IMG/VR virus record: IMGVR_UViG_3300025093_000013
Location: 32,001 to 96,000 of that record
Length of the DNA stretch: 64,000 nt
Direction: 5' to 3' (one strand)
Source of the DNA: a virus
In this document: piece by piece, positions 4,670 through 26,248 of the stretch
Numbering within the stretch: position 1 is the stretch's first letter
Layout of the letters: each line of letters starts with the position of its first letter
Made by a program: the position numbers and the translations under genes
Notes under the pieces: generated by a model
Seen by the model: only the letters and a program-made list of their open reading frames with translations
What the model was told of the DNA's origin: nothing
The model's database searches: none

Positions 4670-4826
4670 TGAGGAGAAGTTAATTAAACTCTTGGAGGAT
4701 GCCTTTATGGAGGGATTCTCTGAGGGTTTTCATACAGAAGATAGCCCTGGCTATTACCTTGCCGCATGGAGAAGGTACATAGAAGACTTGAAGACTCGAC
4801 CTCCCTGGACTACTATAGACTCATGA
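4659..4826 (+). CDS. Hypothetical protein
   Basis: In-frame ATG 4659; operon packing. Confidence 0.55.
   Translation: MILDEEKLIKLLEDAFMEGFSEGFHTEDSPGYYLAAWRRYIEDLKTRPPWTTIDS
4788..4816 (+). promoter_or_regulatory. Leaderless promoter for 4823
   Basis: TTGAAG-17-TACTAT-6-ATG. Confidence 0.78.
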
Positions 4827-4945
4827 GCATCGAAGAACAACTTGAACATGACGGTGACGAGTATTGGTTCACCGAAACTATTACCCTGATCGCAGAGCAA
4901 GACCCTGTGACTAAAGAGTGGATCTACTTTGACGAGGAGAACTGA
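4823..4945 (+). CDS. Small acidic hypothetical protein (40 aa)
   Basis: Hand-translated MSIEEQLEHDGDEYWFTETITLIAEQDPVTKEWIYFDEEN. Confidence 0.6.
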   Translation: MSIEEQLEHDGDEYWFTETITLIAEQDPVTKEWIYFDEEN

Positions 4946-8539: not shown

Positions 8540-9093
8540 TGCAAGAAGAAATGGACTTCGACCCAGAACCAATAGAAGAGGAAGAAGATCCTAATAAGTA
8601 TTGCAATCATTGTGGCACCACCCTAGAAATAGGAATCAACTGGAATGAGTCCGACAAGAAGATATCCATCTATAGATGCAACCCTTGTCGATACTCACTC
8701 ACCCAAGTACCCAAGATCAAATACAATGACCTGAAAAGATCCGCCATCAAAAGAGGATACGAATGGAAACTAAACCCAGAAGAAACCTCTGGTCTACTAC
8801 TAGATGAATGCTACTACTGCGGAAAAGAATCCATACAAGAAGTAAAACTACATGGTCTAGATAGACTCGATAATAATGTAGGATACCAAAAAGATAATGT
8901 AGTAACCTGCTGTGAACAATGCAATAGAGCTAAACTCACAGACACAAAAGAAGACTTCATTGAGATGTGTAAGAGAGTAGCTGATAGACACTACACATAC
9001 GAAAAGTCAAATATGGAGAGTACAAAAATATACCTAGAGAATAACGATCTAGGGGAATTTGTAAAAGAGAATTTTGATTACCCTGTTTGGTGA
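8536..9093 (+). CDS. HNH endonuclease
   Basis: CYYCG...GLDRLDNNVGY...NVVTCCEQCNRAK; extra N-terminal CxxC pair. Confidence 0.85.
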   Translation: MMQEEMDFDPEPIEEEEDPNKYCNHCGTTLEIGINWNESDKKISIYRCNPCRYSLTQVPKIKYNDLKRSAIKRGYEWKLNPEETSGLLLDECYYCGKESIQEVKLHGLDRLDNNVGYQKDNVVTCCEQCNRAKLTDTKEDFIEMCKRVADRHYTYEKSNMESTKIYLENNDLGEFVKENFDYPVW

Positions 9094-9224
9094 TCTACTA
9101 TACACTTGTAGGAAGGGATAGGAAAAGTCAAATATGGCACCCCCTTCTGACCTTGACAATGCATCGTGTAGGAAAAGTCAAATATAAGGGGTGTAATATA
9201 CCCCATGTAAGAAAAGTCAAATCT
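8998..9224 (+). repeat. Four 17-bp direct repeats TAnGAAAAGTCAAAT(A/C)T (iteron-like)
   Basis: Copies start at 8998, 9119, 9169, 9208. Confidence 0.85.
9074..9101 (+). promoter_or_regulatory. Early-type promoter firing into the non-coding repeat/hairpin region
   Basis: TTGATT-16-TACTAT; no ATG at the usual +1 (G9108). Confidence 0.6.
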
Positions 9225-9472
9225 GATTGCTTGACTCAAAACTAAACTTACACACCCCATCCGAGCAAACTTAAAGCAAGCTTTGAGCCAAGTTTAGATG
9301 GGGTGGGTTGGTCGGGGAGAAAAGTTTAGAGTGCGTTTCATACAAACTCTAAACTACTCTGATTGATACTATTCTTAAGGGGGCGAGACACCCCAAAAGA
9401 AGCAAACTACTGCAATACATATACATGTACAGTAGCAGATCTCATCGAAGTCTAATTCTCGACGGGTCTTAT

Positions 9473-9727
9473 TCATTTCCCGAACCTTTCACAACTCCTG
9501 CGAAACATAAGTGCAACCCAATTGTCCAAGAATAGCTGATGGAGAACGAATCCCCTAGTGCCTCCCTTGGAAACTTTCATCCACTTCCTACGCCATGCGT
9601 TAGTGGCATTTTCATGCTCATCTAGGAATCTAGGCTCACAAGGTCTATGCCTTGTTTGGAGCATATGATTCCATGCCCAGCAAGTAAGAAGGGCATTGTT
9701 AGGAAACTTAGTAGGTTGAACCATCAT
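9473..9727 (-). CDS. Hypothetical protein
   Basis: ATGA coupling to 9724..9966. Confidence 0.55.
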   Translation of the reverse strand: MMVQPTKFPNNALLTCWAWNHMLQTRHRPCEPRFLDEHENATNAWRRKWMKVSKGGTRGFVLHQLFLDNWVALMFRRSCERFGK

Positions 9728-9966
9728 CGGTCATTCCTCCAATCTTGATCGTTGTATTGGTCTTCTTCTTCATCCTCGTCGCAAGGAGCGAATGCCTCAT
9801 CTTGGCACTCCTGGCACAATCCAGAGATAGTATACTCCTTAGCAGAGATATCATCTTTGAACCACCCAGCATGGCACCCACACACCACGCACTGCTGGTT
9901 AGCCATAGCGGTAGAGCGAGTGGGCTGGAGGGTGTGGAGGTAAGCTTCCATTTCGGGGCTCTTCAT
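9724..9966 (-). CDS. Small Zn-finger protein with acidic tail
   Basis: CVVCG...CQEC; leaderless promoter. Confidence 0.7.
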   Translation of the reverse strand: MKSPEMEAYLHTLQPTRSTAMANQQCVVCGCHAGWFKDDISAKEYTISGLCQECQDEAFAPCDEDEEEDQYNDQDWRNDR

Positions 9967-9972
9967 GCGTGT

Positions 9973-10000
9973 ATAGTAGCACCTGGGGACTAGGTTTCAA
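9973..10000 (-). promoter_or_regulatory. Leaderless promoter for 9966
   Basis: TTGAAA-16-TACTAT-6-ATG. Confidence 0.85.
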
Positions 10001-10020
10001 GCGGAATCTAAGGAAAGTGG

Positions 10021-10086
10021 GCGTCCTAAGTCTAGGTCTGATAAGGGTTTACGGCGATCGGGGCCGCCGCCCGCCAAAATGGCAGG
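10021..10086. repeat. Cassette element R1 (25-bp palindrome + GC linker + GCCA-n3-TGGC hairpin)
   Basis: gcgtccTAAGTCTAGGtctgaTAAGGGTTTAcggc...ccgccaaaatggcagg. Confidence 0.9.
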
Positions 10087-10106
10087 GCTAGTTTATTGAT
10101 ATAAAC

Positions 10107-10598
10107 TCAGGCGAGAGATTGAATAGCGGCCTTGTGCCAGTTGTGAATAGACTGGCCCGAGACATTGTAGTCCTCTGCGATAGAAGCGTAGGACTCGCCC
10201 TCGATAGTGTGACGCAGAACGATATCACGGTCACGGTCGGAAAGGGAATCGAGCATGGAGAGAGTCTCCTTGTCCTCCGTGTAGGAAGGGTGCCAAGCGT
10301 CGGAGTTATCGTCCTCTTTGATAGCGTCCAGGGACATCTGGATACCGTCACCCTTGAGCGCCTTCTTGGCACAGGCACGGTCAATCTCCATCATGCGCCA
10401 CTTGATGCGCTGAATCATGTAGGTCGAGAACTTCATGCCCGCATCGGGAAGGTACGCCTGCTCGCCCTTGTGCAGAGCCAGGAAAGCCTCGGACACCAGA
10501 TCGTCACGATCATAGTGAGCAGAGATGTGAGGCTTCTCCGCGTACAGGTTGGCGTACTTGTTGGCGGCGGGGATGAAGTCGCTGATGGTGTTGCTCAT
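10107..10598 (-). CDS. sigma70-family (group 3/ECF-like) sigma factor
   Basis: Region 2 DLVSEAFLAL...KFSTY...IKW; region 4 LSDRDRDIV...ESYASIAEDYNVSGQSI; start set at ATG 10598 by promoter geometry. Confidence 0.85.
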   Translation of the reverse strand: MSNTISDFIPAANKYANLYAEKPHISAHYDRDDLVSEAFLALHKGEQAYLPDAGMKFSTYMIQRIKWRMMEIDRACAKKALKGDGIQMSLDAIKEDDNSDAWHPSYTEDKETLSMLDSLSDRDRDIVLRHTIEGESYASIAEDYNVSGQSIHNWHKAAIQSLA

Positions 10599-10605
10599 GT
10601 GACTC

Positions 10606-10634
10606 ATGATAGTCTATTATCGACCACCCGTCAA
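10606..10634 (-). promoter_or_regulatory. Leaderless promoter for the sigma gene
   Basis: TTGACG-17-TATCAT-7-ATG. Confidence 0.8.
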
Positions 10635-10656
10635 CCATTCCTTGAGAGAAATCTCT

Positions 10657-10748
10657 GTCCTAAGTGCCTGGGGGATAAGGACTTACGGCGGGGCGGGCTG
10701 CCCCCGCCAAAATGGCAGGCCCTAACCCCTTGCGGGGCCAGGACTTAG
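10657..10748. repeat. Cassette element R2 plus an extra palindrome copy (10721-10748)
   Basis: gtccTAAGTGCCTGggggaTAAGGACTTAcggc...ccgccaaaatggcagg, then ccTAACCCCTTGcggggCCAGGACTTAg. Confidence 0.9.
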
Positions 10749-10756
10749 AGCCAGAC

Positions 10757-11545
10757 TCAGGCAGCCGCGAGGATACCCTCGGCAGCGTTCCACAGGTTGA
10801 GGTTGACGCGACTCAGCGCGTCGATGTTGGTGAGTTCCCGAGCCTGACGCTTCTGGCCCTCACCCTTGAAACCCCCACGGATGGTGTTCTCCTGCACACG
10901 GTTGAACACGGTCCACAGGTCGGAACCAATGTCCTCCTGCCTGCGAGGGTTGAGAAGCTCCCGAGAGTCGATCTCGGAGGCAGCACCCCAGCGAGCAACC
11001 TTGCCCGCGTGAGCCATCTGGAACTGCTCCTCATCGTCGAGGTGCAGGTTCGCCATGCTGTCGATGTTGTCCGCGATGTTGGGGACAAGGTTGGACATGG
11101 ACTGGATCGCATCGGACACGCTGTCCATGGACAGGTTCATGTGACGCTGCGTGAAGCTGCCCAGATCAAGGGACTGGATAACCAGACCATTCGAGCAGAC
11201 CAGAGCAAACAGGCCAGCGGCCAGCTTGAGCGAGGACGAGCCATCGCTGGAGTTAGTGACGAGGATCTCGGGGAAGATATCCTGCGAAGGGTTGCGAGGG
11301 TCCGCGATGCGAAGGCTAAGATCCTTGCGCTGGAACCCGAGGGTGTGCTTCTTGTTGTCCGCCGAACGCTTGTAGCTCTTGGGCTGGAGCGCACGGGTGA
11401 CGCCCCATCCAAGCGCGTCGAACTGCTCGACAATGCTGGAGGAAGGGACGAAGCTGTAACGATCCGACATGCGGTCGCAGGGCTTGGAGGCGAAGACGGA
11501 AGGAGCGAGCTTCGCGATCTCGCTGTTGTCCATGAAGGTAACCAT
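10757..11545 (-). CDS. DUF932/DUF945 family protein
   Basis: APSVFA....SDRYSFVPS, PEILVTNSSDGSSS...GLF.LVCSNGL, LL.PRR.ED...DLWTVFNRVQEN. Confidence 0.9.
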   Translation of the reverse strand: MVTFMDNSEIAKLAPSVFASKPCDRMSDRYSFVPSSSIVEQFDALGWGVTRALQPKSYKRSADNKKHTLGFQRKDLSLRIADPRNPSQDIFPEILVTNSSDGSSSLKLAAGLFALVCSNGLVIQSLDLGSFTQRHMNLSMDSVSDAIQSMSNLVPNIADNIDSMANLHLDDEEQFQMAHAGKVARWGAASEIDSRELLNPRRQEDIGSDLWTVFNRVQENTIRGGFKGEGQKRQARELTNIDALSRVNLNLWNAAEGILAAA

Positions 11546-11551
11546 GCGTGT

Positions 11552-11579
11552 ATAATAGCGTGCCACACTTAGAGATCAA
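11552..11579 (-). promoter_or_regulatory. Leaderless promoter for the DUF932 gene
   Basis: TTGATC-16-TATTAT-6-ATG. Confidence 0.8.
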
Positions 11580-11599
11580 CAACAAAAGTGCGAAAGTTA

Positions 11600-11660
11600 G
11601 CGTCCTAAGTCGTTGGTACATAAGGACTTACGGCGGCGGGGGCTGCCGCCGAAATGGGGC
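11600..11660. repeat. Cassette element R3 (hairpin half degenerate)
   Basis: gcgtccTAAGTCGTTGgtacaTAAGGACTTAcggcggc...gccgccgaaatggggc. Confidence 0.88.
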
Positions 11661-11679
11661 ATCCTATCGGAAAAGTTAG

Positions 11680-11710
11680 AAAAAAACCCCCGAGGATGCC
11701 TCCCCGAGGG
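11680..11710 (-). terminator. Intrinsic terminator
   Basis: Minus strand CCCUCGGGGA-GGCA-UCCUCGGGGG followed by U7 (10-bp stem with G-U pairs, GNRA loop). Confidence 0.85.
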
Positions 11711-11780
11711 CTGCCCATTTCCCGATGGGCCACTCGCTTTCTTTCAACTCGGTCGGTTAGCTACCCTCCCGAGCGCATCG

Positions 11781-12014
11781 TCATGCAGATTTAGCCATCG
11801 GCGCGAGGCCGTAGATGCCAGTCCGATTCCAGACCTTGACCGCGTGGTCACGGGTGACTCCAGAGTTGAGGAACTCCCCAGTACGCTGGTTGACGATGGA
11901 AAAGGTGGTGATGCCAGCACGCTGAGTGCGAACCATGCAGTAGTTGCTGTTGCAGTAGCCAGCGACGGGAACGAAGGTCGTGCGACCGTTGGTGTAGCGA
12001 GAGTTGATCTTCAT
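11781..12014 (-). CDS. Hypothetical protein (77 aa)
   Basis: MKINSRYTNG...; leaderless promoter fixes the start. Confidence 0.7.
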   Translation of the reverse strand: MKINSRYTNGRTTFVPVAGYCNSNYCMVRTQRAGITTFSIVNQRTGEFLNSGVTRDHAVKVWNRTGIYGLAPMAKSA

Positions 12015-12020
12015 GCTTCT

Positions 12021-12049
12021 ATAGTAGTTTCGAGTGTCGGAAGTTTCAA
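12021..12049 (-). promoter_or_regulatory. Leaderless promoter for 12014
   Basis: TTGAAA-17-TACTAT-6-ATG. Confidence 0.85.
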
Positions 12050-12207
12050 GCGTCCATTGCGTGCTTGTGCTGCTGAATGATATCCCACTCAAGCTCGATA
12101 GCGTCAGCACAGGACTCGCAGAGGAGCGAGTTGCCGAACGGAGAGCCGAGGGCATACTGGGGAAACTGATCCCCGCAAGCGTCACACGCGATGGTGATGT
12201 CTTCCAT
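12046..12207 (-). CDS. Small Zn-finger protein (53 aa)
   Basis: CDAC...CESC; leaderless start. Confidence 0.7.
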   Translation of the reverse strand: MEDITIACDACGDQFPQYALGSPFGNSLLCESCADAIELEWDIIQQHKHAMDA

Positions 12208-12213
12208 GTGTGT

Positions 12214-12241
12214 ATAGTAGTCTATCGGGCCACGAAAGCAA
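12214..12241 (-). promoter_or_regulatory. Leaderless promoter for 12207
   Basis: TTGCTT-16-TACTAT-6-ATG. Confidence 0.8.
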
Positions 12242-12263
12242 GGGAGAATGTCGAGAAAGTGGG

Positions 12264-12328
12264 GCGCGTAAACCCTTGCAGCATAAGGACTTAGGGCGGG
12301 GGCGGCTGCCCCCTGCCAAAATGGCAGG
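12264..12328. repeat. Cassette element R4
   Basis: gcgcgTAAACCCTTGcagcaTAAGGACTTAgggc...cctgccaaaatggcagg; abuts the stop codon at 12329. Confidence 0.9.
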
Positions 12329-12490
12329 TTAGGCTTCTTCTTCCTCACGATAAATATCATACATGATATCGAACGCAGTATCCAAGAGATAAAGGTTGAT
12401 ATCTTGTTCAGCCATAGTTTCTTCAAGAAGACTACTATCTTCGTAGTCAGCCATCCACGCAGTCAGTCTATCTTTGAGTTCTCTCTTCAT
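12329..12490 (-). CDS. Small acidic protein (53 aa), paralog of 5093..5269
   Basis: MKRELKDRLTAWMADYEDSSLLE...EQDINLYLLDTA. Confidence 0.65.
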   Translation of the reverse strand: MKRELKDRLTAWMADYEDSSLLEETMAEQDINLYLLDTAFDIMYDIYREEEEA

Positions 12491-12498
12491 GTTATCAC

Positions 12499-13149
12499 CT
12501 AGTGGGACAGGAACTTCACGGTCATAGTAGATTGCCAGCAGGCACCACAAGTACCACAACTCTCAGTCTTTCCAGTCTGCTCAGGACAAGTGAAAGACTT
12601 ACCCTCGAAAGACTCATCCGCAGCATAACGAATGCCCGACATACTTTCTTTGTTGCGAGACCAGCGAATAACACAACGCTCAGGGTAGGATGCATTCAGG
12701 CGTTGAATACGCTTGCCGATATCATCCTCACGGGCAGTATAACCCCAGATGAGAAGACCATCATACTTGCACAGCATCTCATCCCAGAAGGTTACATAGT
12801 CCGTTGAGAAGAAGTCTCCGAGGACATGGAGACGAATAGCAATCTTGCCATGCTTTGCAATCAGCGTGTCGATCTCATGCTCCAATCGACGAACAAATGC
12901 GCTATAGTCAGCGACAGAATAGCGAGCAGCGAAAGGCATATTGTTTCCATAGCAATCGTCCCAATGGTGGCAGGAACGCGGACAAGTATCGCGTTCGGTT
13001 AGAGTGAGAGAAAAGATAGGGGCACCTGCCCACGCAGTCTTTTTAATACGGCGACCAAGTTTTTTATTGTTGCCACCCGACTTGAGCATAAACACATGAT
13101 TGTCGGGAACGGGCTTGATCGACTTCTGGTAGCGAGTGCTTACTAGCAT
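12499..13149 (-). CDS. GP88-like (radical-SAM-related) phage protein
   Basis: TCPRSC.....CY, IRLHVLGDF, WGYT, CPEQ......CGTCGACW. Confidence 0.75.
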   Translation of the reverse strand: MLVSTRYQKSIKPVPDNHVFMLKSGGNNKKLGRRIKKTAWAGAPIFSLTLTERDTCPRSCHHWDDCYGNNMPFAARYSVADYSAFVRRLEHEIDTLIAKHGKIAIRLHVLGDFFSTDYVTFWDEMLCKYDGLLIWGYTAREDDIGKRIQRLNASYPERCVIRWSRNKESMSGIRYAADESFEGKSFTCPEQTGKTESCGTCGACWQSTMTVKFLSH

Positions 13150-13155
13150 TCCTGT

Positions 13156-13183
13156 ATACTAGCACGGTCGGCCAAGATTGCAA
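13156..13183 (-). promoter_or_regulatory. Leaderless promoter for 13149
   Basis: TTGCAA-16-TAGTAT-6-ATG. Confidence 0.82.
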
Positions 13184-13193
13184 GCAAAATCTA

Positions 13194-13259
13194 GCGTCCT
13201 AAGTCGTTGCTACATAAGGACTTAGGGCGGGGGCGGCGGCCCCCTGCCATTATGGCAGG
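13194..13259. repeat. Cassette element R5
   Basis: gcgtccTAAGTCGTTGctacaTAAGGACTTAgggc...cctgccattatggcagg; 1 nt from the stop codon at 13261. Confidence 0.9.
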
Positions 13260-13260
13260 A

Positions 13261-13473
13261 TCACCTCACAACCTCATCCATAACATAAATCTCCTCATCC
13301 CATCCATCATGCCAACAAGGATAGTCTGCGTGATTATCAACTTCCCAATCCTTATAGCTCTCTTCGATATAGGCTTTGGCATACCTGATAGCGTCCTGCT
13401 GGTCCTTGAACAGACCAAGGAGACGCTTGCCTTCGTGTTGCACTTCACGCCAAAGACAATAAACCTTATCCAT
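13261..13473 (-). CDS. Hypothetical protein (70 aa)
   Basis: MDKVYCLWREVQHEG..LLGLF; TGATG coupling. Confidence 0.65.
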   Translation of the reverse strand: MDKVYCLWREVQHEGKRLLGLFKDQQDAIRYAKAYIEESYKDWEVDNHADYPCWHDGWDEEIYVMDEVVR

Positions 13474-13667
13474 CAAAACTCTCCAATGTAGTGGCCGACA
13501 CGCCAAATTAGATCTTGCACCATATCCTCCACAACATATGATGGCTCATCACCATAACTTAGTTTGCTACGGATCTGCTTGAGTTCTTCAAAGGTGCGAT
13601 TGAGCATATCAAGTGCTTCTTCAAGTTCTTCTTGATGAAGCATATCAAGCGACTTTTCATCCATCAT
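13473..13667 (-). CDS. Hypothetical acidic coiled-coil protein
   Basis: MMDEKSLDML...; operon packing. Confidence 0.6.
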   Translation of the reverse strand: MMDEKSLDMLHQEELEEALDMLNRTFEELKQIRSKLSYGDEPSYVVEDMVQDLIWRVGHYIGEF

Positions 13668-13797
13668 ATTTCCAACCTCTACAGGCGTTCTTGTTCTCTG
13701 CGCGTTTCTTACTGGTGATCTTATGGGCTCGACGGGCGAACTCCATATTGCGAAGGTGATTCCTACGCTTGGCAAGGTTCTTATCGTGCTGGTCCAT
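13657..13797 (-). CDS. Small basic protein (46 aa)
   Basis: Hand-translated MDQHDKNLAKRRNHLRNMEFARRAHKITSKKRAENKNACRGWKYDG. Confidence 0.55.
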   Translation of the reverse strand: MDQHDKNLAKRRNHLRNMEFARRAHKITSKKRAENKNACRGWKYDG

Positions 13798-13801
13798 GGT
13801 A

Positions 13802-14236
13802 TTAGATAGTAGACCGAAACTTGGCAGTGTAAAACTTTACATTCTTGATCCAGTGCTTATTGAGTCCAGTCGGGTCGTTATCAGCACCCACGGGACAATA
13901 ACGCTTGCCAAGGAAAGTAATAAAGTCTCCCTTGCTACCAGCCTTGACCCAGCGATCATAGTTCTTCTGGACAGTGGCAGCACACCACCCAGCTTGGTTA
14001 CGGTATCCAGGCTTGCAACGCTTGTGGATGATACCGTACTGGTACTTCTTGCCATTCTCTGCATACCTAATGGCTGCAACAATAGGGGCAAGTTTAGTGC
14101 GACACTCAGGACGGATATTCACATTGATAGCATCCTGATATAGAGCAGCGTTAGCCTTGCCGTCCTTAGTCTCGATTGCAGAGTACCCATCGGCAAGGAC
14201 AGGGGCACACAGGAGGAGTGCAAGGATAAACTTCAT
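13802..14236 (-). CDS. Secreted lysozyme-fold (transglycosylase/glucosaminidase-like) protein
   Basis: Signal peptide MKFILALLLCAPVLA; IVAAIRYAENG (catalytic-Glu-like motif); RYCPVGADNDPTGLNKHWIKNV. Confidence 0.6.
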   Translation of the reverse strand: MKFILALLLCAPVLADGYSAIETKDGKANAALYQDAINVNIRPECRTKLAPIVAAIRYAENGKKYQYGIIHKRCKPGYRNQAGWCAATVQKNYDRWVKAGSKGDFITFLGKRYCPVGADNDPTGLNKHWIKNVKFYTAKFRSTI

Positions 14237-14328
14237 CGCCAAAGCTCCCAGTCGATGTAACCAGAGAAGAAGAGAGCTTCCTCGCCCTCTTGCTCGTTCA
14301 TCTCGTCTTCGTACTCTTCAAGGTCCAT
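14233..14328 (-). CDS. Acidic micro-protein (31 aa)
   Basis: MDLEEYEDEMNEQEGEEALFFSGYIDWELWR; leaderless start, ATGA coupling. Confidence 0.6.
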   Translation of the reverse strand: MDLEEYEDEMNEQEGEEALFFSGYIDWELWR

Positions 14329-14334
14329 GTGTGT

Positions 14335-14362
14335 ATAGTAGCACAGTCTGGCTATGGTGCAA
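14335..14362 (-). promoter_or_regulatory. Leaderless promoter for 14328
   Basis: TTGCAC-16-TACTAT-6-ATG. Confidence 0.82.
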
Positions 14363-14384
14363 GACTTTATGGGTAGAAAGTGTG

Positions 14385-14448
14385 GCGCGTAAACCCTTGC
14401 TATATAAGGACTTAGGGCAGCGGCGGCAGCCCCTGCCACAATGGCAGG
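14385..14448. repeat. Cassette element R6
   Basis: gcgcgTAAACCCTTGctataTAAGGACTTAgggc...cctgccacaatggcagg. Confidence 0.9.
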
Positions 14449-14500
14449 GGTGAGCGGTTGTGGATCAATCTAGTTCACCACGCGCCCTCACCCCCTATAT

Positions 14501-14743
14501 TCACTGCGTCGAGAGGTGGGCTTCCAAGTGACCCAGACGCTTGCCATTGGGCTTGGTAGGCATCAGCCTACGGACAGCCTTATAGGCATCGAGGGCTTGA
14601 TTCCACTCGTCCCACTCGACGGCAGGGTTAGTGTAGGCCGCACGGAAGTTGCGACCCAGTTCCTCGGACATGGCCTGAAGCCTAGCCTCAGTGTAGGTGT
14701 ATTGATCTTCCATAGAGAACAGAGCTTTGAACTTGCGCCACAT
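14501..14743 (-). CDS. Hypothetical protein (80 aa)
   Basis: MWRKFKALFS...; TGA-T-ATG junction with upstream gene. Confidence 0.6.
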   Translation of the reverse strand: MWRKFKALFSMEDQYTYTEARLQAMSEELGRNFRAAYTNPAVEWDEWNQALDAYKAVRRLMPTKPNGKRLGHLEAHLSTQ

Positions 14744-14744
14744 A

Positions 14745-14903
14745 TCAGAAGGAGTAGCCTCCGTCATCAGCAGGACCGTAGGCGCTCTCCCACCAGTCAG
14801 CGTCAGAGGCTTCGTAGTAATACTCGTCACACTCGATCTGCTCCTCCCACGAAGGGTCGAAGTTGTCGGGGAGGTCGGAGGTGTAGTCAGGGGTGCTTTC
14901 CAT
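14745..14903 (-). CDS. Highly acidic micro-protein (52 aa), first gene of the island
   Basis: Hand-translated MESTPDYTSDLPDNFDPSWEEQIECDEYYYEASDADWWESAYGPADDGGYSF. Confidence 0.65.
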   Translation of the reverse strand: MESTPDYTSDLPDNFDPSWEEQIECDEYYYEASDADWWESAYGPADDGGYSF

Positions 14904-14909
14904 GCCCCT

Positions 14910-14938
14910 ATAGTAGCCTGCACCCCTTCCCCCGTCAA
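14910..14938 (-). promoter_or_regulatory. Leaderless promoter for 14903
   Basis: TTGACG-17-TACTAT-6-ATG. Confidence 0.88.
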
Positions 14939-15024: not shown

Positions 15025-15079
15025 AGGGACTCCTAAAAACTTAGGGACTCCTACAATTATAAAAAAACAGGGACTCCTA
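15025..15079 (+). repeat. Three exact direct repeats AGGGACTCCTA
   Basis: Copies at 15025, 15043, 15069 in the divergent intergenic region. Confidence 0.85.
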
Positions 15080-15103
15080 AATAATTCGGAGCTATATAAG
15101 AGT

Positions 15104-15514
15104 ATGAATCAAATACACGAAGAGCAAATGATTAAAGCTGCGCTTGGTGCATTAGCTAGAAAGCCTGTTATAACCCGACAGCAAGAGAGTATTCTCGCCT
15201 CTATAGCCACAGGAGCAGCGACAGATGTAGCCAAAGCGGCAGGGTCATTCCTTGCTAATAAGGTTATTAAAAAACTAGCAAAGAGGAAGGGTAAGAAAAA
15301 ACAGGAAGTCCAAGAGCATCGACTCTACGAAGCAGGAATGATGAGGGCTGCGCTTGGTGCTTTAAAGAATGTTGCTAGAGACAAGTTCCAAAAGAGCTTT
15401 GAGAAGAAAGCCCCTAAGGGAGGACAGCCTTCAAAAAGTAATATTAAGGCTGGTGTTCAAAGTATTAAAAAACTAGGATCAAGTTTAAGTGGTCCAACGG
15501 ATCGTGTGATGTGA
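15104..15514 (+). CDS. Basic protein with internal duplication, putative internal head protein
   Basis: ATG 15104 follows CTATATAA; HEEQMIKAALGAL / YEAGMMRAALGAL. Confidence 0.65.
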   Translation: MNQIHEEQMIKAALGALARKPVITRQQESILASIATGAATDVAKAAGSFLANKVIKKLAKRKGKKKQEVQEHRLYEAGMMRAALGALKNVARDKFQKSFEKKAPKGGQPSKSNIKAGVQSIKKLGSSLSGPTDRVM

Positions 15515-16991: not shown

Positions 16992-17650
16992 TTTCTTTCT
17001 ATAAAAGCTTCTCTGTTCTTGTGCCAACTATCCCTGCCTACAAGCTCGCCGTGTGAGTTATGTAGAATGGAAATAGGTACGACTTTGTTTTTGAGTTTCT
17101 TCTTGTGTGCAGACACTGTATAGTGTATGTCATAGAAGTCCCAATCACCTTCAAAGTATTCAGGCTTCTCTAAGCCTACTTCTCGAAGGACTCTACCGCT
17201 TGCTGCAAGAAAGAGGCCATCCATGCATACTACTTGGTCTGGCTTTCCATAGTAGGTCGAATCTGCTGTGAGTATATCATCACCATGGAATACATGACCT
17301 CTATGCCTTCCTTGCTGCCATAGTTCGTGATTCCACCACACTGCATCTCTTGAGAGTGCTGTGGTTCCTGCGACTCCAACAAAGCCTGTCTCTACTTGCA
17401 GACAAGTTTGAACTATAATATTTTTGAAAACTTCTGGGTCTGTGAGTATCTCTATATCGTCATGACATAAGATAACAATATCATTGTCCTGGATATCAAA
17501 TTTTTTAAACGCATTTGAATAACCGCTGAAGATAGACTTCTGACCCACTAAGAACTTAGTGCTGATACCAGCCCTAGATAAGTAAGAAGATAATTTTTTT
17601 GTGGTATTACTAAAGTTCTTACTGCGTGTACAAATAAAAGCGTAAATCAT
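16967..17650 (-). CDS. Glycosyltransferase-like protein (GT-A, GT2-like)
   Basis: LCHDD, GFVGVAG, DGLFLA, WDFYDI, ILHNSHG. Confidence 0.8.
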   Translation of the reverse strand: MIYAFICTRSKNFSNTTKKLSSYLSRAGISTKFLVGQKSIFSGYSNAFKKFDIQDNDIVILCHDDIEILTDPEVFKNIIVQTCLQVETGFVGVAGTTALSRDAVWWNHELWQQGRHRGHVFHGDDILTADSTYYGKPDQVVCMDGLFLAASGRVLREVGLEKPEYFEGDWDFYDIHYTVSAHKKKLKNKVVPISILHNSHGELVGRDSWHKNREAFIERNQLPIFVG

Positions 17651-19199
17651 GAGACTACAAACAAAAGAAGATTACAAGAAAGAGTATGCTAAATGCAAAG
17701 AGGACCCTGTATACTTTATAAGTAATTATATCAAGGTGGTCCACCCAGTTCGAGGACTAGTTCCATTTAATTTGTATCCCTTCCAGAAAACCATCATCCA
17801 CGCGATAGAAGGAAACAGGTTCAACATACTTAGGAAGTTTAGACAGGCTGGTTGTACAACGATTGCTGCTGCTTACTCCTTATGGCTTTGTTGCTTCAAG
17901 TCTCACCAGACCATTGTTATCTTGTCTGTAGGTGACACGGAATCTACTGAAGTTCTGGACCGTATCAAAATTATGTATGACGAACTCCCAGGGTGGATCA
18001 AGCCTAAGTCTACAACAATCAACGCACACAACCTTAAGCTAGAGAACAACTCTCATATCAAGTCTCGTCCATCAGGTAAGCAATCAGGTCGTGGTCTTTC
18101 TGGTTCACTACTTATTATTGATGAGGCTGCCTTCATTGAACACATTGATACAATTTGGGCTGCTGTTTATCCCATTATTTCTACTGGAGGTCGTGCTTTC
18201 GTCCTGTCTACTGTTAATGGTATTGGTAACTGGTATTACGACACTTGGACAAGGGCTGTCGAGGGCGCTAATGCATTTAACCCAATTCAGATAGGATGGC
18301 AGGACCACCCCGAGTACGCGCGTGTAGAGGGCTTTGAGTGGCTCTACAAGGAGATGGAGGAGAGAGACCCTCCTGCCATTATCGAAGAGTGGGAGCCCAC
18401 TACAAGGGCTAACATCAGCCATAAGAAGTGGCTACAAGAATACGAGTGTGAGTTCCTTGGAACTGGTGATACATTTATCGAAGGTCAGATACTGCAAGCA
18501 CTGACGGAGAATGTGAATGATAACTTCTATCGTAAGTACAATAACCGAATGTATGTGTGGAAAGATCCAGACCCTAACTCGACATATTTCATGGCGGTCG
18601 ATGTTGCATTGGGCAGGGGTCGTGATTATTCTGCTTTTCAAATTATTGATCTTTATTCAGGTGAGCAAGTGGCTGAGTTCTACTCAAACACCACCCCTAT
18701 AAATGAGTTTGCCAAGATATGTTTCGATGAGGGCAACTATTATAATTTATGTCCCGTTCTGGTAGAGCGTAATACGATCGGTAACAACTTACTAGACTAT
18801 CTCTTCGACCAGTTGGAGTACGAGAATGTCTGGTTTGACGAAAAACGAAACATGGGACTCCAAATAACAGCCAAGAACAGAGATACGATCCTGGTGGAAA
18901 TGGAAGAAGCTATTCGCATGAGTGAAGTTAAAATTAACTCCAAGAGAACCGTCCTAGAGCTTAATACCTTCATTATCAGCGATAATGGCAAGGTCAAGGC
19001 AGATACTGGACAAAATGATGATCTTGTTATGAGTTTAGCACTATCTATATACGGAGGCCGAAGATACCGAGAGGACAACCCTGAGATCATTAAATTTAAT
19101 CCTTCCAAAGAGAAGAGACCTCCAATGCCATTAAAATCTCAGAAGATCATGACCTCTAGAGGTAGCATAGAAGAAGACATAACATGGGTAATCAAATAA
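17649..19199 (+). CDS. terL: Terminase large subunit (T4 gp17-like)
   Basis: LYPFQ, RQAGCTT, LIIDEAAF, STVNG, QEYECEF, VDVA.GRG.DYS, VERN, DDLVMS. Confidence 0.96.
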   Translation: MRLQTKEDYKKEYAKCKEDPVYFISNYIKVVHPVRGLVPFNLYPFQKTIIHAIEGNRFNILRKFRQAGCTTIAAAYSLWLCCFKSHQTIVILSVGDTESTEVLDRIKIMYDELPGWIKPKSTTINAHNLKLENNSHIKSRPSGKQSGRGLSGSLLIIDEAAFIEHIDTIWAAVYPIISTGGRAFVLSTVNGIGNWYYDTWTRAVEGANAFNPIQIGWQDHPEYARVEGFEWLYKEMEERDPPAIIEEWEPTTRANISHKKWLQEYECEFLGTGDTFIEGQILQALTENVNDNFYRKYNNRMYVWKDPDPNSTYFMAVDVALGRGRDYSAFQIIDLYSGEQVAEFYSNTTPINEFAKICFDEGNYYNLCPVLVERNTIGNNLLDYLFDQLEYENVWFDEKRNMGLQITAKNRDTILVEMEEAIRMSEVKINSKRTVLELNTFIISDNGKVKADTGQNDDLVMSLALSIYGGRRYREDNPEIIKFNPSKEKRPPMPLKSQKIMTSRGSIEEDITWVIK

Positions 19200-20947
19200 A
19201 CGAAAACGCTGGTCCTGGGCTAACAACATGGACACCAGTTGGTGACGGTAGTGTGCAAAGCATGTACACCACTGGTTACATGTCCAAGATCTTTGCAAAG
19301 TTCTTTGCTACTGAGGCGCAGAGAAAGCTTGCCATAGGAGGCGACCCTCGTAACATTGAGGGTGATCTTATTGTAAACCCAAAGGGTCTTGATAATATCC
19401 TTAGCCCTCTTTGGTCCTACACCCGTGGTCTTCCATTCTTACCTGAGTCTGAACTTAACAGGAAGCGTAGATATGACGAATACGAGAAGATGGATGATTA
19501 TCCTGAGATTACCGCTGCTCTTGATATCTATGCTGATGATTCTACTCAGAAAGATCTAAGGAACAAGAGATGGAAAGTAGTATCTGATAGCATCGATGCC
19601 ATCGAAGAGGTTGAGAGACTGTTCGATAGAATCAAGCTAGAGCGTGTATACTACGATATTGTAAGGGGCACTTGCAAGTATGGTGACACTTTCATTGAAA
19701 CTGTAGCTAATGCTAACGATATGACTGCTGGCATCATGAAAGTTAAGGTGCTGAACCCTTACTACATCATGAGAATAGAAGATAAGTTCGGATATCTCAA
19801 GACATTTATTCAAGAAATACCTCATGGCTCACAGGACACAGGAAGTTATGCCCAGAGTAACTCCTCTTACATCGAGCTAGACAAGAATCAGATCGTCCAT
19901 TTCCGTCTGAACACCTCTGATCCCAAATATTACCCTTACGGTAAGTCTATTCTTGCTGGTGCAATCCGTGTTTATCGCTCTCTCAAGCTCATGGAAGACG
20001 CAATGCTTGTCTATCGTCTCTCTAGAGCGCCTGAAAGACGCATTTTCTATGTCGATGTAGGCAACCTACCTGCCTCAAAGGCTGAGGGTTTCCTTGAAAC
20101 CATGAAAACACGCTTCAAGAAGGAGAAGTTCCACAACAATAATAAGGTTGATGGTCGCTTCAACCCTCTTGCAGTCGATGAAGACTTCTTCGTACCCGTC
20201 AGAGGCAACCAAGGAACTAAGATTGACACCTTACCAGGGGCACAAAACCTTGGTGAAGTCGATGATGTCAAGTATTTCCGTGATAAATTGCTTGCAACAC
20301 TTAAGGTTCCCAAGGATTACATCGTTGAGTACGACAAATCACCTGAAAGAAAGGCAAATCTTAGCCAACTTGATGTAAAGTTTGCTCGCGTTATCCAAAG
20401 AGTACAGGATTCCGTGTGTGTTGGCCTTGCTGACATCGCAAAAAGGCACCTAACTATGCTTGACTACCCTGCAAGTGTCGTTAGACGCCTAAAAATCACC
20501 CTTCCTGAGCCTTCTGATGTCTTTATCAAGCGTAAACTAGAGATTGATGAGGCAAAAGCCCGTGTTGTACAGGCTGTAGTCGGTACAGGACTCTTCCCAA
20601 CCAGCCGTATCTACAAAGAATACTATGATATGACTGATACTGAGATTGAAATGGTCAAGAAAGACCTTGAAGACGAGCAACAGAAGCAAAATCAGCAAGA
20701 ACTTGAGCAACAAGCGGGTCAAGCCCAAACTCAAGCGGCTGCTGACATGGCAGTTGCCGATAATCAAGCTCAAAATGACTTAGCAATGCAACAAGCACAG
20801 CAACAAGCGCAACCAGCGCCCCAAAAAGAAGAAATTGACAGCCTGACTCTTCTAAAACGGCAATATTTGATGACTGAGGGCATTGACTCTGCAAAATACC
20901 GTGCAATCGACCGAGTTCTGAAAAATAAAAATAAAATCGACGGCTGA
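19184..20947 (+). CDS. gp20: Portal protein (T4 gp20-like)
   Basis: EDAMLVYRLSRAPERRIFYVDVGNLP, EDFFVPVRG, TKIDTLPGAQNLGEVDDVKYF. Confidence 0.96.
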   Translation: MGNQINENAGPGLTTWTPVGDGSVQSMYTTGYMSKIFAKFFATEAQRKLAIGGDPRNIEGDLIVNPKGLDNILSPLWSYTRGLPFLPESELNRKRRYDEYEKMDDYPEITAALDIYADDSTQKDLRNKRWKVVSDSIDAIEEVERLFDRIKLERVYYDIVRGTCKYGDTFIETVANANDMTAGIMKVKVLNPYYIMRIEDKFGYLKTFIQEIPHGSQDTGSYAQSNSSYIELDKNQIVHFRLNTSDPKYYPYGKSILAGAIRVYRSLKLMEDAMLVYRLSRAPERRIFYVDVGNLPASKAEGFLETMKTRFKKEKFHNNNKVDGRFNPLAVDEDFFVPVRGNQGTKIDTLPGAQNLGEVDDVKYFRDKLLATLKVPKDYIVEYDKSPERKANLSQLDVKFARVIQRVQDSVCVGLADIAKRHLTMLDYPASVVRRLKITLPEPSDVFIKRKLEIDEAKARVVQAVVGTGLFPTSRIYKEYYDMTDTEIEMVKKDLEDEQQKQNQQELEQQAGQAQTQAAADMAVADNQAQNDLAMQQAQQQAQPAPQKEEIDSLTLLKRQYLMTEGIDSAKYRAIDRVLKNKNKIDG

Positions 20948-23380: not shown

Positions 23381-26248
23381 ATGGCAGACCAAATACCTTT
23401 AAGAATAGTTACTGTCTCAGGTCAACCCTTTATTGGAGAGTTTCAATCAGGTGACACCGTTGGAGTCGTTCATGGTGGAACTGGTGCATCAAGTATAGCT
23501 GGTCTAAAAACCGCCTTAGACTATAACCTAACTGGTTTAGACGATGTTGCTGTAGGGTTCCCTGATGCGTTATCAGCTAACCAAATTATTGTTTGGAACG
23601 GGACTGCTTGGGTAAACGAATACAACGACAAGACTGAGATGCGTGTTCGGAACGGCAACGAAGTTGCCATGAGCAAGGGTGATGTAATTGCCATTAAAGA
23701 TTCTCAGAACGCTAATCTTGTAAATGTTATCCTAGCAGATGCATCTCAAACATCTGCTATGCCTGCTCTTGGTGTTCTTGAGCAAGACCTTGCTGTAGGT
23801 GAAGAGGGTATTGCAATTACTTTTGGCAAGGCTCAGGGTCTTAATACATCGGGTCTTACAGAAGGTGCAACTGCTTATGTGAGTCCTACAACTCCAGGGG
23901 GTATCACTACTACTAAACCCACCTCTGGAGATCACTTTATTCAAAACATAGGTATCGTTATGAGAGCAAATGCTTTTAACGGTGCTATTAAGGTTACTGG
24001 TATTGGTCGTGCTAACGATATACCTAACGCGGAGATTACGACACTATCAGGTGATGCTGATTATGTTTACATTGATGATGGTGGTGTTTGGAAAAAGATT
24101 ACTCCCGCAAACCTAGGTGTAGGTAGTGGAGGTGGAGGATCCGCATCCTTATCAGGTCTAACTGACACTAATATTTCATCTCCTTCACATAATGAATCTC
24201 TTGTTTGGACATCCTCCACAGGAGAGTGGATCAATGCTAGTGTCGCAGGTGGTGGAGGAGTAACGGATCACGGGCTACTTACAGGTCTAAGCGATAACGA
24301 TCACCCACAGTATGTTCTAACTACTATCAATAATGATCTGTCAACTCTTGTAACAAACATAGAAACCTCTACAGTTGATATATCAGGTTACATAGCTGCC
24401 AATGAAACCACATGGTCAACTGACAACGATACAACAGATCACACTGCTCTGAGTAATATAGGCACAAACACTCACGCCCAGATTGATAGTCACATAGCCT
24501 CAGGTTCTGTACACTTTACAGAAGCGAGCATTGATCATGGATCTATTGCTGGTCTAGGTGACAATGACCATCCTCAGTATGTTCTTTCTGCTACTAATAA
24601 TGCTCTATCAAGCCTTGTAACGAGTGTAGAAACATCTACAGTAAGCCTTTCTAGCTATATTGCGGCTAATGAGACTACATGGTCAACTGACAATGACACG
24701 ACTGATCACACTGCCTTAAGTAATATCGGTACTAACACCCATGCTCAAATCGATAGCCATATTGCTTCAGGATCCGTACACTTCACAGAAGCGAGTATTG
24801 ACCATGGATCTATTGCTGGACTAGCAGACAATGATCACCCTCAGTATGTTCTTTCGGCAACTAACAACGATCTGTCTACGCTTGTCACTAGCGTTGAAAC
24901 ATCTACTGTAAGCCTTTCAAGCTATATCGCTGCTAACGAAACAACTTGGTCCACGGATAATGACACAACAGATCATACTGCCTTAAGTAATATAGGAACT
25001 AATACCCACGCTCAGATTGATAGCCATATTGCGTCTGGGTCTGTACACTTTACAGAAGCAAGCATTGACCACGGATCTATCGCTGGTCTTGGTGATAACG
25101 ATCACCCTCAATATGTTCTCTCTGCTACCAATAATGCTCTATCAAGCCTTGTAACGAGTGTAGAAACATCAACAGTTAATCTATCTGGGTATATTGCAGC
25201 TAACGAGACAACTTGGGCTACTGATACTGACACCACTGATCACACTGCTCTAAGTAATATCGGTACTAATACACACGCTCAGATTGATACTCATATTAGT
25301 AACCACACCACCTCAGCAAATACTTGGAATGGTACTTACCAGACGGTATTTGATAACTCGGGTAGTTGGGGTGGTGGAGGAGGAGTCACCGATCACGGCG
25401 CTTTAACGGGTCTAGCCGACAACGATCACCCGCAGTATGTGCTATCTTCTACTAACGCTGCGCTAAGTTCTCTTGTAACAGATACCACAGACGCAAGCAC
25501 ATTGTTCAGCGGAAACATTACTGTAACAGGAACTACTGCAACTCATATAGGAACTCTAGGAACTACTGACGCTGCTACATTCGGATTACAATCAAGCGGT
25601 AACACTTCCATAATTGCACCATCTCTAATATTGAGTGCGACTACAGCCTATCAATTCCGTAAGAATGGTAGCACTACATTCACTGATACAGACTTCCCTC
25701 AGTCTTGTAGGGATTGGGACTCTACCTACAACACTGTTCTTAACAGTTCAGGTTCTTGGGGTGGTGGAGGCGGTGGAGGCGTAGCCGCTGGTATTACTGT
25801 TGTTAACACGGGAACAGATAATATTAACTCTACTGGTGGTGCCCTTGTTCCATTAGATGTAACCGCTGGATATCCTGCATATGGAAGTTATGCTACAGAC
25901 TTTAGTTACACTCCTGGTAATGCCTATGTAACTATCAACACAGCAGGAACTTACGAGGTAACATTTAATGTTGGTTACATTTCAACAACCACTCGATGGA
26001 ACGGTGTATTAAAAATATACAAAGGTACTGGTGGAGCATCCCCAAGTGCGTGGATTGGTTATGGAGCAGGCAAGATGGGTTATGTAAGAAACTCAAGTGG
26101 TCATAACGAGTCCTCTCTAATTGTAACCTGTCTTGTAACCTGTTCCGCTAATGATACTGTAGGTGGTCATGTAATTAACGAAGCCACTAGCGGAACATGT
26201 ACTCTGGTTGCTAACGAAACATTCATGACAATTAAGAGGATGTCTTGA
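23381..26248 (+). CDS. Fibre protein with His-rich tandem repeats
   Basis: 955 aa, Gly/Thr/Ser-rich, poly-Gly hinges, LSGLTDTNI / W.NG.W fibre motifs. Confidence 0.8.
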   Translation: MADQIPLRIVTVSGQPFIGEFQSGDTVGVVHGGTGASSIAGLKTALDYNLTGLDDVAVGFPDALSANQIIVWNGTAWVNEYNDKTEMRVRNGNEVAMSKGDVIAIKDSQNANLVNVILADASQTSAMPALGVLEQDLAVGEEGIAITFGKAQGLNTSGLTEGATAYVSPTTPGGITTTKPTSGDHFIQNIGIVMRANAFNGAIKVTGIGRANDIPNAEITTLSGDADYVYIDDGGVWKKITPANLGVGSGGGGSASLSGLTDTNISSPSHNESLVWTSSTGEWINASVAGGGGVTDHGLLTGLSDNDHPQYVLTTINNDLSTLVTNIETSTVDISGYIAANETTWSTDNDTTDHTALSNIGTNTHAQIDSHIASGSVHFTEASIDHGSIAGLGDNDHPQYVLSATNNALSSLVTSVETSTVSLSSYIAANETTWSTDNDTTDHTALSNIGTNTHAQIDSHIASGSVHFTEASIDHGSIAGLADNDHPQYVLSATNNDLSTLVTSVETSTVSLSSYIAANETTWSTDNDTTDHTALSNIGTNTHAQIDSHIASGSVHFTEASIDHGSIAGLGDNDHPQYVLSATNNALSSLVTSVETSTVNLSGYIAANETTWATDTDTTDHTALSNIGTNTHAQIDTHISNHTTSANTWNGTYQTVFDNSGSWGGGGGVTDHGALTGLADNDHPQYVLSSTNAALSSLVTDTTDASTLFSGNITVTGTTATHIGTLGTTDAATFGLQSSGNTSIIAPSLILSATTAYQFRKNGSTTFTDTDFPQSCRDWDSTYNTVLNSSGSWGGGGGGGVAAGITVVNTGTDNINSTGGALVPLDVTAGYPAYGSYATDFSYTPGNAYVTINTAGTYEVTFNVGYISTTTRWNGVLKIYKGTGGASPSAWIGYGAGKMGYVRNSSGHNESSLIVTCLVTCSANDTVGGHVINEATSGTCTLVANETFMTIKRMS
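24266..25480 (+). repeat. Intragenic 267-bp (89-aa) tandem repeats
   Basis: DHG codons at 24266, 24533, 24800, 25067; partial unit at 25391. Confidence 0.9.

Follow-up and report, generated by a model that had tools for sequence, protein, structure and literature searches.

Probable PeSL-type composite linkers between the early genes of an uncultured marine T4-related phage

The window analysed here comprises 64,000 nucleotides, bases 32001-96000 of the 112,473-bp IMG/VR virus record IMGVR_UViG_3300025093_000013, which is rated complete by CheckV and derives from an uncultured, marine, T4-related phage. Its portal is 27-34% identical to T4-type portals, those of cyanomyoviruses and coliphages included, and an INPHARED blastn search gave no DNA match among cultured phages. 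Small genes on the - strand form a one-directional block from position 14938 down to ~9320 of the window, and within this early-gene array six linker elements are found between positions 9964 and 14448. These elements are probably composite linkers of the PeSL (promoter-early stem-loop) type known from cultured T4-type phages: they would regulate each unit of genes and, at the same time, provide portable homology for the recombinational shuffling of these units.

A repeat search returned a single family of six copies (10011-10071, 10645-10705, 11590-11650, 12253-12313, 13184-13244 and 14374-14434), the same six that the original prediction, made from the letters of the window, had pointed out. 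They are absent from the remainder of the complete 112-kb genome, and their hairpin motif is confined to the array when the whole record is searched. The shared core spans ~65 bp, from the hairpin through the palindrome, and is repeated in direct orientation. The six elements are composed as follows:

E6, 14326-14448, - strand: hairpin 14432-14448; G+C linker 14415-14431; palindrome 14390-14414; putative -35 14357-14362 and -10 14335-14340; ATG 14326-14328.
E5, 13147-13259, - strand: hairpin 13243-13259; G+C hairpin 13225-13242; palindrome 13200-13224; putative -35 13178-13183 (16 bp from the palindrome) and -10 13156-13161; ATG 13147-13149.
E4, 12205-12328, - strand: hairpin 12312-12328, abutting a TAA stop; G+C hairpin 12294-12311; palindrome 12269-12293; putative -35 12236-12241 and -10 12214-12219; ATG 12205-12207.
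E3, 11543-11657, - strand: decayed hairpin; G+C hairpin; palindrome 11606-11630; putative -35 11574-11579 and -10 11552-11557; ATG 11543-11545.
E2, 10596-10748, - strand: extra palindrome 10722-10748 ahead of the hairpin 10703-10719; G+C linker 10686-10702; palindrome 10661-10685; putative -35 10629-10634 and -10 10606-10611; ATG 10596-10598.
E1, 9964-10086, - strand: hairpin 10070-10086; G+C linker 10052-10069; palindrome 10027-10051 (left arm of the TAAACC type); putative -35 9995-10000 and -10 9973-9978; ATG 9964-9966.

Read 5' to 3' on the - strand, the order of the parts is the stop codon of the previous unit, the hairpin, the G+C linker, the 25-bp palindrome, a T-containing spacer, the putative promoter and the ATG, which agrees with the anatomy first proposed, save for the hairpin that has decayed in one copy. 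The hairpin combines a 7-bp stem and a 3-nt loop (CCTGCCA-n3-TGGCRGG). It is present in five of the six copies, starting at 10070, 10703, 12312, 13243 and 14432, and is decayed in E3 (~11640). The motif has 11 matches, both strands counted, versus a mean of 0.5 in shuffled sequence, and ATAAGGACTTA has five exact occurrences in the window, every one within the array. The loops vary (TTT, TAA, AAA, TTA, TTG). In E4 the stop codon abuts the hairpin (TAA-CCTGCCA, 0 nt), and in E5 a single nucleotide separates the two (TGA-T-CCTGCCA); both close contacts had been noticed in the original prediction. The G+C linker that follows is 17-18 nt long and nearly pure G+C; it folds as a G5C-n4-GC5 hairpin only in E4, E5 and E6, and E3 possesses a different one (CGGCGGC-n7-GCCGCCG). 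A G+C hairpin is thus seen in E3 to E6 and the 7-3-7 hairpin in every copy except E3. Among relatives, the linker hairpin is clear in the metagenome contigs L113, L144 and L186, as it is in E4-E6, while many copies of the type found in contig G003 fold no better than shuffled sequence. The palindrome is exactly 25 bp long in a 9-7-9 arrangement, with arms drawn from TAAGTSCTT or TAAACCCTT, and its 7-bp spacers vary within one genome (ATGTAGC, ATGCTGC, ATATAGC, ATCCCCC, ATCAGAC).

Downstream of the palindrome, every copy displays the series TTGnnn, 16-17 nt, TAnnnT (often with TGn ahead), 6-7 nt and ATG. This candidate sigma70-type consensus is found in all six copies of the window and in 41 of 46 copies of relatives, several with the TGn of an extended -10 box. 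No Shine-Dalgarno sequence lies between the promoter and the ATG, and there is no room for a leader, as only 6-7 nt separate the -10 box from the ATG. Each unit would be driven by a host sigma70-type promoter, often of the extended -10 kind, and with the ATG at the predicted +1 the first gene of the unit would be translated from the leaderless mRNA of its own promoter. Several predicted + strand promoters at 0.6-5.3 kb of the window share this -10/ATG geometry but are devoid of hairpins and palindrome: CTACTATA-n5-ATG, with TTG at 16-17 nt, occurs at 657, 4246, 4810 and 5271. The phage would thus have two classes of leaderless early promoter. To note, a likeness of CTACTATAG to T7/SP6-like promoters was dismissed as a coincidence: the sequence 5' of it is unconserved, and what is conserved is the TTG at 16-17 nt and the TGn.

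Thirty-five distinct copies place the palindrome 26 or 27 bp from the -35 box; two more have it at 16 bp and three at 37 bp. These steps of one helical turn keep the palindrome on a single helical face, which fits a protein touching RNA polymerase from one face and would be surprising for a site of recombination or for a hairpin formed in RNA. The arms, moreover, occur in all combinations (GT/AC, GT/GT, AC/AC), which leave pairing unkept on either strand and are therefore unlike an RNA stem. We read the palindrome as the putative binding site of a transcription factor, most likely a dimeric factor acting as a class I type activator upstream of the -35 box. At class I promoters, the activator sites, for example those of CRP, are centred at -61.5, -71.5 or -82.5. 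The palindrome resembles them with its centre at ~-63, -74 or -84 and a T-rich stretch before the -35 box; TAAGTCCTT-n7-AAGGACTTA, however, fits no regulator that we can name. By Pfam, no helix-turn-helix regulator is found among 20 neighbouring early proteins. The GP88-like protein encoded in the array was considered as the palindrome binder and rejected, having no helix-turn-helix and being kept by more distant phages that lack the palindromes. The perfect palindrome was also sought as a possible host transcription factor site in 185,579 genomes, where it has more than 120 matches across many phyla, with no enrichment in Alphaproteobacteria, a scatter that is uninformative about such a role.

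No module is conserved more widely in the clade than the palindrome; the hairpin is limited to a subset. Elsewhere in the clade, a second palindrome or a terminator with a T run takes the slot of the hairpin, which suggests that the hairpin serves to end or insulate the upstream unit despite its lack of a U tract; together with the G+C-rich hairpin or linker, it would close that unit. Hairpins also act as early promoters in phage N4, where they have a stem of 5-7 bp and a 3-nt loop, a geometry that the 7-bp stem and 3-nt loop of the element fit. It is nevertheless extremely improbable that the hairpin is an N4-type promoter for a single-subunit RNA polymerase carried in the virion. Its loop sequence varies, it stands directly after stop codons, ~100 nt upstream of the ATG, and a complete sigma70-type promoter is predicted in between; the fillers of its slot in other lineages argue in the same direction. 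Furthermore, none of the large proteins without known function has an RNA polymerase domain by Pfam. A whole-genome search with PF00940 gave no match, but its positive controls gave none either.

By pattern scans, these linkers were also located in IMG/VR, on three contigs (G001 to G003; G000 is the genome of the window), and in about 20 metagenome contigs (L numbers) from estuarine and marine samples. A looser pattern scan of viral contigs yielded mostly single chance hits. G001 and G003 are essentially one genome, and G002 is separate. In blastn comparisons, G000 and G002 are collinear in the flanks on both sides, and the units in between are permuted:

Window 13259-12501, E5 and the GP88-like gene, matches G002 19294-20057.
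Window 12331-11602, E4 and the Zn unit (a CxxC...CxxC protein), matches G002 17024-17756.
Window 11651-10645, E3 and the DUF932 gene, matches G002 18340-19369.
Window 10719-9964, E2 and the sigma factor gene, matches G002 17694-18448.

Protein-cluster maps give the order GP88-like, Zn, DUF932, sigma and Zn2 at the end of the window array, each unit being preceded by an element. In four lineages, G002, G003 (with L108, L117, L122 and L123), L106 and L127, the 46/64/70-aa (amino acid) genes are followed, again with an element before each unit, by Zn, sigma, DUF932, GP88-like and Zn2 onwards. At least two whole-unit moves with retained orientation are needed to pass from one order to the other. 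Seven of the eight block ends lie inside elements, which represent 12.7% of the array. In the best-matching Logan run, an independent contig covers 10414-12959 with two mismatches and thereby confirms the order of the window over E2, E3 and E4. Gene order is therefore not identical among relatives, and the original suggestion that recombination between elements adds, removes and rearranges units is borne out, since the order differs and the block ends lie in the elements.

Arrays of like kind were also reached in distant contigs (45-60% protein identity) by a search with the GP88-like protein. L139 has ten hairpin-bearing linkers within 7 kb; the linkers of L145, from an AT-rich lineage, consist of the palindrome only; L156 exhibits doublets of palindrome, G+C hairpin and palindrome; and in L186 a T-run terminator is followed by GGGGGCCCC and then by the palindrome. 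The palindrome hence persists in lineages without the hairpin, and the reverse case is also found. Whole units again change places between L140, ordered (c25-c2-c4)(c19-c48-c1)GP88, and L141, ordered (c19-c49)(c25-c2-c4)GP88, and L131 and G000 likewise differ by whole units.

In three-way alignments with the G002 or L106 elements sharing its upstream or downstream unit, each junction element of the window proves to be a hybrid. Its left part, which comprises the hairpin loop, the linker, the left arm and the spacer, goes with the upstream unit; its right part, which begins with the right arm and includes the promoter, goes with the downstream unit. In E1 (junction J5), the switch between the two parts is placed at the border of hairpin and linker, and in the group of E5, E3 and E2 (J1, J3 and J4) it is close to the right arm, from which we infer that the crossovers occur at no single fixed nucleotide. 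The G+C linker is 75-92% identical within a lineage versus 43-52% between lineages, while the hairpin is equally conserved within and between them (identity ~0.8-0.9). This pattern indicates concerted evolution of the linker and purifying selection on the hairpin. In E4, the right arm and its flank match E6 of the same genome and not the G002 orthologue. Concerted evolution, the E4/E6 match and the hybrid junctions all require exchange between elements.

The proteins for such an exchange are encoded in the genome: a UvsX-like recombinase, SbcC- and SbcD-like proteins of the T4 gp46/47 type and an SSB, besides a DnaB-like helicase, a DNA polymerase and a T4-like prohead protease. As the core is repeated in direct orientation, it would also serve as portable homology, on which the UvsX-like recombinase, the SbcCD-like nuclease subunits and the SSB may exchange and convert linkers. 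Such exchange, probably homologous rather than site-specific, would excise, re-insert and permute units made of a promoter and its genes while leaving their expression unbroken.

A different possibility is an integron-like site-specific system, in which the 9-7-9 palindrome or the 7-3-7 hairpin would be the core site of an unrecognised phage protein or of the host XerCD, and the exchange would be conservative and take place at one position. Indeed, core sites of tyrosine recombinases have a geometry similar to this 9-7-9 arrangement, the units move whole and keep their orientation, and the hairpin and the arms of the palindrome retain their sequence between lineages that share only 65-75% identity in coding DNA. 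As with integrons and their attC sites, one-directional units are parted by imperfect palindromes, and their order varies among relatives. However, the complete genome holds no match to the tyrosine recombinase family PF00589, found in all 14 control genomes, and neither a serine recombinase nor a Y1 transposase was found in it. The tyrosine recombinase that the original prediction suggested looking for elsewhere in the genome is thus missing, as is any counterpart of the integrase IntI. The 7-bp spacers differ between the elements of one genome, which tyrosine recombinases tolerate poorly; the switch points inferred at J5 differ from those at J1, J3 and J4; the palindrome is helically phased to the putative promoter; and palindrome and hairpin each occur without the other in some lineages. 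Each unit, furthermore, appears to have its own promoter, in contrast to integron cassettes, which are promoterless and depend on a common Pc. A site-specific system of this kind is very unlikely. We also consider it quite unlikely that the hairpin and the palindrome are the landing sites of dedicated unrecognised proteins, the array being a site-directed cassette platform rather than a passive substrate for general recombination, and a phage counterpart of the integron in which each cassette has a factor-dependent leaderless promoter of its own.

The closest known systems are the PeSLs of phages RB49/phi1, T4/PST and KVP40/nt-1 (Arbiol et al. 2010, PMC2839356; Comeau et al. 2014, PMC4122927). 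A PeSL is a small composite terminator/promoter cassette in which a stem-loop immediately precedes a sigma70-like early promoter; a Shine-Dalgarno sequence and an ATG come next. PeSLs cluster in hyperplastic regions of T4-type phages, and their sequence differs somewhat between lineages. They mediate insertions, deletions, replacements and one ORF (open reading frame) displacement, and recombination between neighbours gives rise to mini-circles (PMC2839356, PMC4122927). The original prediction had held that the element resembles neither PeSLs nor integrons; it matches PeSLs in architecture, setting and behaviour. It, too, carries a stem-loop directly upstream of a predicted sigma70-type early promoter and start codon, and its copies stand in one orientation between small non-essential early genes. 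The region is plastic, its small ORFs are mostly without family, and the phage possesses a T4-type portal, UvsX and SbcCD-like gp46/47-type genes. Copies are alike within a genome and divergent between lineages, and the insertions, deletions, replacements and displacements of units by which related phages differ map to the elements. The array is not a new principle. The morons of lambdoid phages, autonomous promoter-gene-terminator units, share with it the self-contained transcription units and the foreign base composition; they are, however, single insertions with no shared repeated linker and no array.

Conversely, the elements may be purely regulatory, that is, terminators or insulators, operators and promoters that do not promote recombination and that harbour the breakpoints as the sole free intergenic space. 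The helical phasing of the palindrome shows a transcriptional role, and element-independent rearrangements also occur. As all gene junctions within units overlap or measure less than 10 nt, viable breaks are hardly possible elsewhere, so that the enrichment of block ends at the linkers is partly due to selection, which alone would produce it. Several further observations weigh, like this one, against the interpretation as PeSL-type linkers. The clean permutation relative to the window is seen in one assembled relative set only. Changes unlinked to the elements exist: genes are gained and lost within units, and the 53-aa acidic gene at 12329-12490 sits in the other early region of G002 (contig 24973-25122), where it has its own predicted leaderless promoter. 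To note, at the place that this gene occupies in G002, the window (~4823-4870) has a fused remnant only. Logan contigs from four marine runs contain many joints that link elements and suggest DUF932-GP88, sigma-DUF932, DUF932-Zn and DUF932-31-aa-unit neighbours. They were not counted as deletions or circles, as their flanks measure 25-56 nt and may belong to the elements of relatives. Described PeSLs, moreover, have a Shine-Dalgarno sequence, an AT-rich upstream part and no phased palindrome, whereas the elements of the window have no Shine-Dalgarno sequence, an ATG at the predicted +1 and a phased 25-bp palindrome. They also carry two hairpins, the first of which keeps its sequence even in distant lineages. 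Both hairpins lack a U tract and hence are not canonical intrinsic terminators; a terminator scan matches 11685-11712 only. The stem of the first hairpin shows no covariation: wobble changes on the sense strand (2 types) are about as frequent as A-C mismatches (2-3 types). Finally, terminator activity and mini-circles have been demonstrated for the PeSLs of RB49/phi1, and the elements of the window are known from sequence. A purely regulatory role is nonetheless unlikely, given the concerted evolution of the G+C linker within lineages, the likeness of the right arm and flank of E4 to E6 rather than to the G002 orthologue, and the switch inside the shared core of the hybrid junction elements.

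The cargo of the array is arranged in seven units:

Unit 0, 14501-14938, - strand: 52-aa acidic ORF 14745-14903 and 80-aa ORF 14501-14743.
Unit 1, 13261-14328, - strand: 31-aa acidic peptide 14233-14328, 144-aa protein 13802-14236, and 46-aa (13657-13797), 64-aa (13473-13667) and 70-aa (13261-13473) proteins; no family matches.
Unit 2, 12329-13149, - strand: GP88-like protein 12499-13149 (PF17338, phrog_2554) and the 53-aa acidic ORF 12329-12490.
Unit 3, 11781-12207, - strand: 53-aa CxxC...CxxC protein 12046-12207 and 77-aa ORF 11781-12014.
Unit 4, 10757-11545, - strand: DUF932 protein of 262 aa, 60% G+C.
Unit 5, 10107-10607, - strand: small sigma-70-family factor with regions 2 and 4.
Unit 6, 9318-9966, - strand: 80-aa CxxC protein 9724-9966, 84-aa ORF 9473-9727 and 33-aa ORF 9375-9476.

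Pfam and PHROGs support the sigma factor, the DUF932 protein and the GP88-like protein, as originally named, and leave the remaining cargo without family. The lysozyme-like character ascribed to the 144-aa protein of unit 1 finds no support in either database; this protein has a signal-peptide-like N-terminus. The leaderless start of the sigma factor is probably the ATG at 10596-10598. In the original prediction, the cargo was seen as putative host-takeover or anti-defence genes. The sigma, DUF932 and Zn units have a G+C content of 55-60% versus ~43% for the genome. The GP88-like protein occurs in at least 388 viral contigs and harbours invariant cysteines at positions 56, 60, 66, 188, 198, 201 and 204. 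Its AlphaFold model (pLDDT 89) predicts an alpha/beta fold that would be weakly similar to radical-SAM partial barrels (Z 5-6.5).

Other features complete the array, in which Rfam recognises no family at E <= 1 (nor anywhere in the window at the gathering threshold):

14901-14938, - strand: predicted promoter of unit 0, without element, with leaderless geometry.
12012-12049, - strand: predicted internal leaderless promoter of unit 3, without element.
11685-11712, - strand: intrinsic terminator with a 12-bp stem and a T run, the sole canonical one in the array, closing the Zn/77-aa unit and preceding E3, the copy with the decayed hairpin.
9318-9355, - strand: hairpin and T run at the array end.

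The divergent promoter region between the first promoter of the array and a + strand gene (15104-15514) is occupied by copies of AGGGACTCCTAA with a GANTC site (window 15025-15089); the repeat search gives two (15025-15045 and 15069-15089), and a third is seen by eye between them. At the other extremity, a 20-nt direct repeat, ATAGGAAAAGTCAAATATGG, is present in four copies (8997-9226) in the convergent gap at the array end.

Arrays of relatives contain RNA genes as well. A ~80-nt gene in L131 (5794-5873), L143 (1981-2062) and L146 (5702-5783) matches both ends of the Rfam tmRNA model with 66-76 bits and looks like the tRNA-like domain with little or no middle part of tmRNA. It is not called by ARAGORN and has no copy in the window, where a tRNA search likewise found none. 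Pistol self-cleaving ribozymes (RF02679, 51-54 bits) are intergenic in L143 (4679-4766) and L146 (3401-3497), and none is present in the window, even at E <= 1.

Concerning the host, the GP88-like relatives in cultured phages all come from phages of Alphaproteobacteria. L238 (contig CAKZNY010000259.1, 5.7 kb), binned with a Rhodobacteraceae metagenome-assembled genome, contains four palindromes as doublets of palindrome, G+C and palindrome, and is probably a phage of the same clade. These two observations are weak hints that the hosts of the clade are alphaproteobacterial.

The modular shuffling associated with PeSLs thus extends beyond the cultured coliphages and vibriophages into a broad clade of marine phages that are uncultured, in which the variant of the linker adds a deeply conserved, helically phased putative operator and predicted leaderless messages. 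The array yields a defined early regulon comprising a sigma factor, a DUF932 protein, a GP88-like protein and zinc-ribbon proteins. The palindrome, as a cis-element, could serve to fish out its regulator, and the linker offers an easy sequence tag by which to locate plastic early-gene regions in metagenomes.

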